64,000 nucleotides of DNA. It comes from Escherichia coli. Its GTDB lineage: Bacteria > Pseudomonadota > Gammaproteobacteria > Enterobacterales > Enterobacteriaceae. Position 1 is the first letter of the stretch, and each line of letters starts with the position of its first letter. The position numbers were made by a program. This document shows positions 1 to 3,000 of this stretch, piece after piece. The DNA lies in NCBI RefSeq assembly GCF_011045215.1, contig NZ_CP049201.1; one strand, written 5' to 3'.

Positions 1-3000
1 CACATCATTAAAAAACGAAAATTAAATGATCTTTTTATCAGTATGAAGGAGCAAATGATCGTCATAATTCTTTGCGCTGCCACAGTTTTTTATGTAAGTA
101 TGGATGAAGGGAAAAGAAAGGAAAAACATTTTGTTTTTTGTGATTGTTGTTACATAATAAATAAAAAACAATTGATTATATTGCTGTATTGTGCTGTAAA
201 TAAGTGCTTCGCTTTGTCTGGTACTGATTTATTCCCGGGGGTGGAGGGGCATGGCAGATGAAGGGAGGGATGAATCGGGACTTTTTGTTTAATTCGTTGA
301 CAGCAACAGTCATAAGAGAAAGCAACAATTCACATATGGAGCAGTTTATGAAAACTATCTTCATAGCAGAGCCTGTCGTGACGGCGGGTAACAGTAACAG
401 GCTGATTGCGGTGGAAATTCTGAGCCGATTTTATTCTGTTAATGGAAAACAACTTCCTACCGTGAAAACGCTGAATATGTTTACAGCAGAGATGAAAATT
501 GATTTGCTGGAATTACAGATAAGAAAAATAATAAGTAAAGCTTCTTTTTTTAGTAAGCATAATATACTGTGTTCCCTTAACGTCGATTATGATACATGTC
601 AGTATATATACAGAAATAAAAATATTCAGGATATAATAAAGTCATATGATTTTATTGTTCTTGAAATTTCTGAAACATACCCGGTCATAAAGGCTGATGA
701 TGCAATAATTCCTTTTCTCATTAATCTGTCAGAACATATCTGGCTGGATGATTTAGGGAGTGGTAACAGTACAATACATACGTTGATAAGAAATAAATTC
801 CAGGCAGTGAAACTTGACAAAAATTCACGGTATGAAACCGCATTTTGCTGCATTAATAGACAATATAAAAAGATTATGCCCTCTGGTTATTGCCGAGGGT
901 GTTGAAAACAAGAATTATCTGCATGCTGCTTCAGGTGCTGGTTTATGGGGTGTTCAGGGATATTATTTTCCATCAGTACAGTTTGAGGATATTCATCAGA
1001 TAAAGTTGGATTTTTCTGAGAACATCAGCTGATGAGTCTGTCATATTCTTTCTTCCCTGATATATCCGGGCAGTGTTTAAGCATAATAGTCATAAGAATA
1101 CTGGTTATTATATTTTCCCTGGTGGTATCCAGAACAGGTTTCCCTTCTCTGCTCAACCTGTTAATTCTTTGGGAAGAACTCCGGATGCGTAACGGATTTC
1201 CAGCTCTCCCGAAAAATACCATCCATAGTAACGGTTCAGACAAATCACATCTGTGTATTGATGAGCATAACATTTACCACAGGAGGTCAGCATTACATTG
1301 ACAAACGTCAGTGGTCTGTTTTGTGGATCCTGGTTCCGGGCATATTCAAATACCTGACAGGAAATATTTTTCCTGTGGTCGGGCTAATCTGTTAGCACCA
1401 GTGATATATAAGACGGTCAAAGATCGTGGCGTTGACACGACATTAGGTTATCAGGCGGTTCGCAATTTCATGGAACCTGTAAATGGGTTGTCACGCTATC
1501 GGACCAGGAAGGGATGAATAATTAGTATCAGTACAGTAATTACAAAAGTGTCTTCATGCCGACTAAAAAGTTTCCTTTCTTTTTCCATGCAATTAGCGTG
1601 ATGTTTGCATGAAAAAGCGTTGGTAATTAATGAATAAGTATTTTCAGGATGATCAGTATCTCTGAAATGAACTTCACCTGTTTACATGTGAACAAAAAAG
1701 CAACTCATAATATTGCCGTCTTTTGTTTTTCCATTTTTTGATATACTTGTTTTTGATTTTTGTCTAATTTTTGCTTTTTTGTTTGTACGGTTAAAAATGC
1801 TGCTTAATGCAAATTAAACGATCTTTTTATTTGTTATTTTGCTGCCAATTGGAGTTATTTTTGGTGTTTTTTTGTGTTTTTGGTTTGTTTGTCTTTATTG
1901 TGTCGTTTTTGTAGATAAAAAGATCGTTTTTTTGTTATTTACTGGGATAAAGTATCTATATATCCTGTGTGCGAATTTTATTCTTTCTCTGTTTTATGGT
2001 TAAGGAGAAGATGTGCAAAAAAAGTAAAAGAGAAGGATGTTTTAATACCAGGAAAGGTATCTGAGTTTGTTTTTCCGTTGTTAATGGAGTTGTCTTCGGT
2101 TCGTAGTGAGAGGGTTATTTATGCGCTCAGGGATTTTCTTGTCTGGGGATATACAAGGAAGGAGGTATGTGAAAGGTATGGAGTGACTTACAGTTATTTT
2201 TCAAAGGCGTTAAAACGTGTTTGTCGGGTTGGTAATATTATTGTTTGTTTGCTGGAGCATTATCCATTTATTCATTGATTATTCTCTTAATTTATTATGT
2301 AGGTTGATATTAGCGTGTTTTTGTAAGCTTGCTAACACCAGCTGTACATCGTTTAAAGCTGGTTTATTTTTAGCATTAAGGAGTTTAAATGAAAATGATT
2401 AAAACTGTAATGGCAGGTGCTGTTGCTATGGCTCTGGTTTCTTTTGGTGCGAATGCGGATCCTGCAGCAGTAACACTACCTGTAAACCAGGGGCAGGGTG
2501 TTGTTAATTTCAAAGGTACTGTGATTAATTCACCGTGCAGCATTGCTCAGGAATCAGCAGATCAGACTATTAATTTCGGTCAGATTTCTAAAAATCAGCT
2601 GGAAAAAGGGGGAACCTCAGTCCGGAAGGATCTTGATATTAAGCTGATGAATTGTGATGTTGCGGTAGGGAAAAATGTCAGCGTTACTTTCACTGGTACA
2701 ACAGTAAAAGGCGGTACTCCGCAGGAGCTTGGTACTACTGGTGATACTGGTACAGCTATTGCGCTGGCCAGTGCAGATGGTTCTCTGGTTACTTTTGATG
2801 GAACCACGCCAGGTGGCGCGACTCAACTGAAAAATGGTGACAACATCCTGAAATATTCTGCCTGGGTTAAAAAATCCAGTGCAGCTGGTGCGACTATTAA
2901 AGAAGGTGACTTCTCTGCTGTTGCTAACTTTAACCTGACTTATCAGTAAATCATGCTCGCCGGTTTTTAACCGTTATATACGCAGGGGCGTCAGCCCCTG

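Follow-up and report, generated by a model that had tools for sequence, protein, structure and literature searches.

A stand-alone EAL gene beside a pap-type fimbrial cluster of Escherichia coli is probably a pseudogene formed by an 11-bp deletion

Results

An EAL gene divided over two reading frames

The stretch of DNA analyzed here, a 64,000-nt segment of an Escherichia coli genome (the window), carries near its beginning two overlapping plus-strand ORFs, 258..905 in frame 0 and 814..1032 in frame +1. Against the Pfam EAL domain they score 38.7 bits (E = 9.4e-10) and 24.8 bits (E = 1.6e-5), respectively, with a cut-off of 31.3 bits. The first piece contains the motifs EILSR, N78, EISE, DDLGSG, and KLD, the second contains EGVE and QGY, and the EAL catalytic and metal-binding set (E..R, N, ExxE, DD, KxD, EGVE, and QG) is complete in the window once both frames are combined. 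An uninterrupted frame for the whole barrel is absent, as frame 0 ends at 903-905 and EGVE and QG lie in the +1 frame. When the intact relative P0020 was used as a tblastn query, its residues 1-159 aligned to 348-824 with 98.7% identity and its residues 164-231 to 826-1029 with 92.6% identity. The split EAL gene is real and well above chance, and the preliminary description of this locus, in which the hallmark motifs were present but divided over two frames, is borne out by both the paired Pfam matches and the tblastn split.

The most likely true start, judged from sequence features, is the ATG at 348. It is favored by a GGAG at 338-341, 6 nt ahead of it, by the RefSeq start of an identical 185-residue product, and by the position of the initial Met in all 55%-identical relatives. 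The in-frame extension of the longest ORF upstream of this codon (258..347, plus strand) is probably untranslated, since the relatives and RefSeq begin at the equivalent Met. The 5' part of the gene thus occupies 348..905 on the plus strand, where 348-824 encodes residues 1-159 (EILSR, N78, EISE, DDLGSG, and KLDK) and is followed by 26 out-of-frame codons up to a TGA at 903-905. The 3' part, at 826..1032 on the same strand, encodes residues 164-231 with EGVE and QGYYF in the +1 frame and stops at 1030-1032; the TTG at 814 that opens the 3' ORF has no Shine–Dalgarno sequence ahead of it. Among about 15 billion proteins searched, the exact 185-residue product (WP_250848386.1) occurs on one 5.41-Mb E. 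coli contig only, and the 215- and 72-residue products of the two ORFs were not found. The RefSeq entry for the 185-residue product is annotated as a protein and not as a pseudogene.

Remnants between the EAL gene and the fimbrial switch

Divergent from the EAL gene, the minus strand at 1..65 holds the first 21 codons (MTIICSFILIKRSFNFRFLMM) of an AraC-type partner that runs off the window start, and its first 18 residues are identical to those of a 246-residue HTH_18/AraC protein encoded upstream of the intact EAL gene at locus L006. A GATC box is located at 14-38. In the intact context (loci L006 and L007), the gene order is the AraC-type regulator (minus), the EAL gene (plus), a 615-residue GH2 hydrolase (minus), and an MFS_2 transporter (plus). 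The window is collinear with L006 over 2-1117, and its positions 1130-1368 correspond to the interior of the GH2 gene, with DNA homology ending at 1368. A GH2 (beta-glucuronidase-like) remnant with internal stops is accordingly present at 1141..1416 on the minus strand; it aligns by tblastn to residues 417-512 of the L006 hydrolase (64.6% identity, E = 1.4e-32) and has a weak Pfam Glyco_hydro_2_C match. At the junction of this remnant and the pap-type region lies a Tn3-family end-like remnant (1382..1438) of about 55 bp with about 90% identity to many plasmids, and in one of them (L022) it directly adjoins the end of a partial gene for a Tn3-family transposase.

The core of a pap-type switch follows at 1816..1929. 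Its inverted repeats, perfect over 15 nt, lie at 1816-1830 (AAACGATCTTTTTAT) and 1915-1929 (ATAAAAAGATCGTTT) and carry GATC sites at 1820 and 1922, which are separated by 102 bp. The fimbrial cluster opens at 1967..2278 on the plus strand with a gene for a PapB-family regulator (Pfam PapB, 97.1 bits) whose exact protein sequence occurs on 295 contigs, and genes for the major subunit, usher, and chaperone lie beyond it. The hallmark of a pap-type Dam/Lrp switch, a pair of inverted GATC boxes spaced by about 102 bp ahead of a PapB-family gene, is therefore present in the window. Between the EAL gene and the switch no PapI gene or remnant was found, as no minus frame of 1030-1700 gave a Pfam match to FaeA/PapI; one PapI-like ORF, the only one in the window, occupies 12240-12446.

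The EAL gene had been described as lying directly upstream of the fimbrial switch. It is indeed 5' of it, but the GH2 and Tn3-type remnants intervene between its stop at 1032 and the first GATC box at 1816-1830. The separation of the EAL gene from the switch by these GH2 and transposon-end remnants indicates that its adjacency to the fimbrial genes is a mosaic. Among complete genomes, the segment with the switch and papB is confined to the three that have this EAL gene, which indicates that the EAL gene, GH2 remnant, switch, and papB form one mosaic module that has since spread. The EAL gene would have reached the fimbrial cluster by a mosaic rearrangement that truncated the neighboring GH2 gene. 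A built-in link to fimbriae is not supported by the locus: the conserved partner of the EAL gene is the divergent AraC-type gene, and the intact context is GH2 and MFS.

Eleven bases are missing next to an A run

The break had been attributed to a single-base frameshift in a run of five A placed at 815-819. The run is actually at 819-823, within an A5 plus TT stretch at 819..825 on the plus strand, and it is as long as that of the closest intact allele, whereas 11 nt that follow it are missing. The fixed flanks GTGAAACTTGAC and ATGAAACCGCA enclose 24 nt in every intact allele, which is of one of three types (AAAAGTTTTTTTCAAAAACACAGT, AAAAATTTTTTTCAAATACACAGT, and AAAAAATTTTTTCAAATACACGGT), and 13 nt in the window (AAAAATTCACGGT). 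The closest intact allele overall (L006-8), which differs by nine substitutions across the reading frame, has the A5 run in common with the window and continues T7CAAATA. The window reads AAAAATT|CACGGT, with the deletion junction between 825 and 826 ambiguous by a few bases. The BLAST alignment of the window with L006-8 has a single gap, a deletion of TTTTTCAAATA (the 11 nt after the A5 run), and 11 columns were likewise absent from the window in the first alignment with homologues. The 24 versus 13 nt, together with the same A5 in the closest intact allele, identify the defect as an 11-bp deletion beside the A run.

At the protein level, residues 160-163 are exactly those left unmatched by tblastn with the intact protein. 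KLDK-x-F-(F/Y)-Q is retained without any shortening in all the more distant relatives (52-57% identity, 226-229 residues), and the 24-nt state is for this reason taken as ancestral. Additional alleles were drawn from a 90% protein cluster with 292 members. One example of an intact allele is WP_073521246.1. Among the three intact allele types, the tract varies only by substitutions at the A/T boundary (A4G T7, A5 T7, and A6 T6) and always totals 24 nt; tract-length polymorphism was looked for among them and none was seen. The preliminary description had itself called for a comparison with intact homologues, and with a 24-nt tract everywhere the lesion is not one of a single base. Its proposed sign of an intact gene, four A in place of five, would open the frame, yet every homologue would still be 12 nt longer. 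A pair of ORFs that a homopolymer edit can join was not necessarily split at that homopolymer, and it was the comparison with intact alleles that moved the diagnosis from a possible phase switch to an irreversible 11-bp deletion.

The deletion lies within a tract rich in A and T (A5 T7 C A3 T A); it took out codons 160-163 and shifted the frame. AAAT is present twice in the intact alleles, exactly 11 nt apart, and slipped-strand mispairing between these repeats is the probable origin. The simple form of this model predicts ...AAAAATACAC (ATACAC), whereas the window reads ...AAAAATTCAC (ATTCAC), and the mismatch means that the model needs an ancestor with ATT (Ile), which was not observed, or else one more substitution.

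The predicted protein lacks the last part of the barrel

When the 11 nt are put back into the window gene, the AlphaFold (AF2) model of its protein is confident, with a pLDDT of 92.6. In this model, the catalytic K155-x-D157 lies in and just after strand 153-156, and the central part of helix 158-164 is encoded by the missing codons. The elements that follow, namely helix 170-180, strand 183-187 with EGVE, and strand 205-207 with QG, are all out of frame in the window. The 185-residue product would keep the first six beta/alpha units and lack the helix after K155/D157, the EGVE strand, and the QG strand. Given these losses, it should be catalytically dead and is probably unstable.

Restoring the 11 nt raises the Pfam EAL score to 71.6 bits, close to the 72.9 bits of intact P0020, whereas removing one A gives 62.0 bits (cut-off 31.3). 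The latter edit fuses the ORFs into a 227-residue product that reads KLDK-IHGM in place of KLDK-NFFQ-IHGM. The loss of one A thus leaves four residues missing, and homopolymer slippage cannot restore the wild type. Moreover, the Phe160 of the FlhD-binding protein STM1697 aligns with the first deleted Phe, so the window allele is disabled under either functional model, phosphodiesterase activity or FlhD binding.

Distribution of the AraC and EAL cassette and decay of its alleles

The EAL family was found at 73 places in 69 of the 5,426 complete E. coli genomes (about 1%) and is plasmid-borne at 67 of these 73 places. Among 1.84 billion cluster representatives, it counts nine at E <= 1e-30 and 82 at E <= 1e-10. 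Paralogous cassettes, in which the AraC partner is 52-57% and the EAL protein 55% identical, are located next to eatA on pETEC_74 of enterotoxigenic E. coli (ETEC), on an IncFII plasmid, and on P1-like phage-plasmids. Fimbrial genes were not found beside these paralogues, whose neighbors are toxin–antitoxin, replication, phage, and eatA genes. The co-divergence of the AraC partner and the contexts of the cassettes indicate that the conserved functional unit is AraC plus EAL, not EAL plus fimbriae.

A close homologue (95-97% identity) is present in only three of the 5,426 complete genomes, namely those of C5 (on the chromosome and on plasmid A), 52F4, and RM8082, which are all bovine strains. 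Relative to the L006 reference, the C5 plasmid A allele and the P0001/P0021 alleles (22 contigs) have a genuine -1 in a different A5 run, with P0001 additionally carrying DDL -> DNL, and the P0018 alleles (17 contigs) have a +4 TGAT insertion at codon ~83, with two of their loci also showing +1 or +3 in a G run. The window 11-bp deletion, the -1 A, and the +4 TGAT lie on three different backgrounds within the same ~97% allele group. From these alleles, we conclude that the group contains at least three independent recent lesions and that the window copy is one of them. The pN/pS between alleles is 0.05-0.43 and typically about 0.2, which points to purifying selection until recently and to young disruptions. 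On the same value, relaxed selection throughout the gene's history was rejected.

Discussion

The locus is best read as the product of a small deletion and a mosaic rearrangement. With a probability of about 0.88, positions 348-1032 of the window are a pseudogene of a 231-residue stand-alone EAL protein that was inactivated by an 11-bp deletion and that derives from an AraC plus EAL cassette placed as a mosaic beside fimbrial genes. Of the two options in the preliminary description, a slippage-switchable or a decayed regulator, the gene corresponds to the second, a decayed EAL gene.

Slippage would require the A5 tract to act as a phase-variable ON/OFF switch, in which the loss of one A during replication or transcription, or a +1 ribosomal shift on AAA-A, restores function. 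The fused 227-residue product that one-A removal creates does still score 62 bits on Pfam EAL, and the copy on C5 plasmid A is broken by a genuine single-A change in another A5 run. However, the window tract is unchanged with respect to the closest intact allele, and 11 nt are gone instead; the fused product lacks F160-F161-Q162 and a neighboring residue in helix 158-164, a segment whose length is invariant in all relatives; and the intact alleles, which vary in the tract by substitution only, show no polymorphism in its length. Five A are, in addition, short of the tracts at known contingency loci. A switch is on these grounds hardly credible. A -1 programmed ribosomal frameshift was also considered and leads into the wrong frame, the 3' piece being +1. 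The break might also be an assembly or consensus error in a genome whose gene is intact, because the lesion sits within a low-complexity A/T tract and the exact 185-residue product comes from one contig only among about 15 billion proteins. Homopolymer errors, however, typically involve 1-2 nt and not 11 nt over A, T, and C positions, and the other copies carry unrelated disruptive lesions in many independent assemblies, which makes decay the norm for this locus. We regard such an error as quite unlikely.

A different possibility is that the truncation is tolerated because the 185-residue product keeps a non-enzymatic role, either binding FlhD4C2 as STM1697 and YdiV do or titrating a partner, and has become neofunctionalized in connection with the fimbriae. 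The nearest solved structures are indeed those of the EAL-like anti-FlhD4C2 proteins STM1697 (30% identity, TM 0.83-0.90) and YdiV, and fimbrial clusters often encode motility repressors, such as PapX and SfaX. Against this, the residues of the STM1697 FlhD surface (F160, K167, L172, L173, K175, H176, and Y180) are located at the deletion or downstream of it and are missing or read in the wrong frame, the polar contacts K175, H176, and Y180 are D, N, and L even in intact members, and a barrel without its last two beta/alpha units would be unlikely to fold. A retained role of this kind is extremely improbable, and the pseudogene reading stands. An extension of that reading is that the repeated inactivation specifically in copies joined to pap-type fimbriae reflects selection against the enzyme there (pathoadaptive loss) and not neutral decay, and that AraC plus EAL is an uncharacterized mobile module for c-di-GMP or motility control, a catalytically complete sister of STM1697 and YdiV carried by ETEC virulence plasmids next to eatA, IncFII plasmids, P1-like phage-plasmids, and islands. 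We consider this extension doubtful.

The gene by itself matters little, being one more strain-specific pseudogene among the c-di-GMP turnover genes of E. coli, and it merits annotation as a pseudogene in place of a 185-residue protein. The co-diverging AraC plus EAL cassette on ETEC plasmids and phage-plasmids, with anti-FlhDC proteins as its nearest structures, may be of interest to specialists. A literature search for the ETEC AraC/EAL module returned nothing relevant. Likewise, no description of the accessory EAL family or of the 11-bp lesion was found in the literature searched, outside which lies the study by Povolotsky and Hengge (2016); the latter reportedly names accessory Pde genes.

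Among known EAL systems, the family shares with the PdeH/YhjH-type stand-alone phosphodiesterases (PF00563) a single EAL domain of about 230 residues and, in intact alleles, the full catalytic signature. The catalytic residues are invariant in the family alignment, and the intact alleles carry E23, R27, N78, E106, E109, D134, D135, K155, E187, E190, and Q207, which suggests that the intact relatives are probably active c-di-GMP phosphodiesterases. The best NCBIfam match is the PdeH equivalog model PRK11596 at 86 bits, below the cut-off of 190, and the gene is therefore not a PdeH orthologue. Unlike the PdeH type, moreover, the family is accessory and mobile, and the window copy is a pseudogene.

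The preliminary description had also pointed to EAL genes, sfaY and papY, beside fimbrial operons. We know of no papY. The SfaY of CFT073 does exist and offers a genuine likeness, as both are stand-alone EAL genes next to a chaperone–usher fimbrial cluster with PapB/PapI-type regulators, and the SfaY (PdeY) of S/F1C clusters is described as a stand-alone phosphodiesterase (PMC6385356, PMC5635171). However, CFT073 sfaY is at the 3' end of the foc/sfa cluster beside sfaX, whereas the window gene is 5' of its cluster, is paired with an AraC-type gene, and has a GH2 remnant before the switch. CFT073 SfaY is 25% identical to the window family over 231 residues, which does not support reading the analogy as homology, and sfaY-bearing genomes gave no DNA-level match in a distant search of complete E. 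coli genomes. A search of the window for an SfaX-like ORF gave no credible candidate, its single tblastn match (6195-6290, E = 0.95) being inside the usher gene. Orthology with SfaY was rejected on the identity of 25% and the different position, and by these comparisons the likeness is one of kind, not of family.

By sequence, the nearest proteins of solved structure are STM1697 (5hxg; E = 1.7e-30, 30% identity) and YdiV/STM1344 (E = 1e-17). These are also the nearest by fold, with TM values of 0.83-0.90 for STM1697 and about 0.85 for YdiV, and active EAL domains such as YahA come next. The family has in common with these proteins a compact stand-alone architecture. In STM1697 and YdiV the metal-binding residues are degenerate, and c-di-GMP is neither bound nor cleaved by these proteins (PMC5622320); the window family, by contrast, retains D134, E106, and E187, which are G, Q, and G in STM1697. 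The FlhD-binding surface of STM1697 includes the residues from F160 to Y180 named above, with Phe160 as the central contact (PMC5622320). In the window family, F160, K167, and L173 are kept, F160 being generic to EAL domains, and the positions of L172, K175, H176, and Y180 hold A, D, N, and L.

In E. coli, variation between strains in c-di-GMP turnover genes is reported to arise commonly from frameshifts and stop codons (PMC5635171). As a frameshift-broken c-di-GMP turnover gene, the window copy resembles these pseudogenized GGDEF/EAL genes. It is an ordinary pseudogene of an uncharacterized accessory EAL family, and because it was broken by the loss of 11 bases and not by an extra A, it is not a reversible switch.

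Other disrupted copies of the EAL gene

The copy most similar to the EAL locus in the window is carried by C5 plasmid A (L002 8138-8835), where the gene is broken by a real loss of a single A. This loss falls in a different A5 run, which corresponds to about 866-870 of the window, and the metal-binding motif of the same copy is also altered from DDL to DNL. The 3' part of the gene contains a G run at position 614 of the L006 reference allele, which corresponds to GGGG at about 956-959 of the window. In the comparison loci L019 and L021, this run shows a change of +1 or +3, and the alleles with this change were already disrupted by a TGAT insertion.

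Genomic setting and the fimbrial cluster

The region at about 28000-44000 contains the dynamin-like genes leoA/leoB, a phosphoethanolamine transferase gene, and yicH/yicI, and its top matches among other E. coli chromosomes reach only 96.5-97% identity; the window therefore represents a chromosomal island region rather than a plasmid. Beyond the EAL gene, a remnant of a GH2 beta-glucuronidase-like gene occupies 1141-1416 on the minus strand, covering residues 417-512 of 615 and riddled with stop codons, and L006/L007 carry an unbroken version of this gene next to their intact EAL allele. A segment of ~55 bp at 1382-1438 shares ~90% identity with many E. coli plasmids, and in L022 its counterpart directly adjoins the point where a partial Tn3-family transposase gene ends. 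This segment is probably a transposon-end remnant that marks the junction with the pap-type region.

No PapI gene directly adjoins the pap-type switch. The distal end of the fimbrial cluster holds two further ORFs on the plus strand. One, at 12240-12446, is PapI-like (35% identical to CFT073 SfaC, E = 1e-7); the other, at 10342-10563, is PapB-like (E = 1e-11) and the second of its kind. Within the cluster, a 306-residue ORF (8353-9273, plus strand) weakly matches FKBP-type peptidyl-prolyl isomerases over residues 202-287 (E = 4.4e-10), which is unexpected at a pilus subunit position.

The divergent AraC-type partner

A third pap-type GATC box was observed at 14-38 (22/25 identical to 1806-1830). 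This box sits in the 5' part of the coding sequence for the divergent AraC-type regulator and precedes the start of the EAL gene by about 310 bp; it is also found at L006 9766-9783. We found no characterization of this AraC-type regulator and stand-alone EAL gene pair, which forms a divergent two-gene cassette in L018 (6010-7642, plasmid pETEC_74), L012, and L014-L016. These cassettes reside on ETEC virulence plasmids beside eatA, on one IncFII plasmid, and on P1-like phage-plasmids, and their partners have co-diverged, with 52-57% identity.
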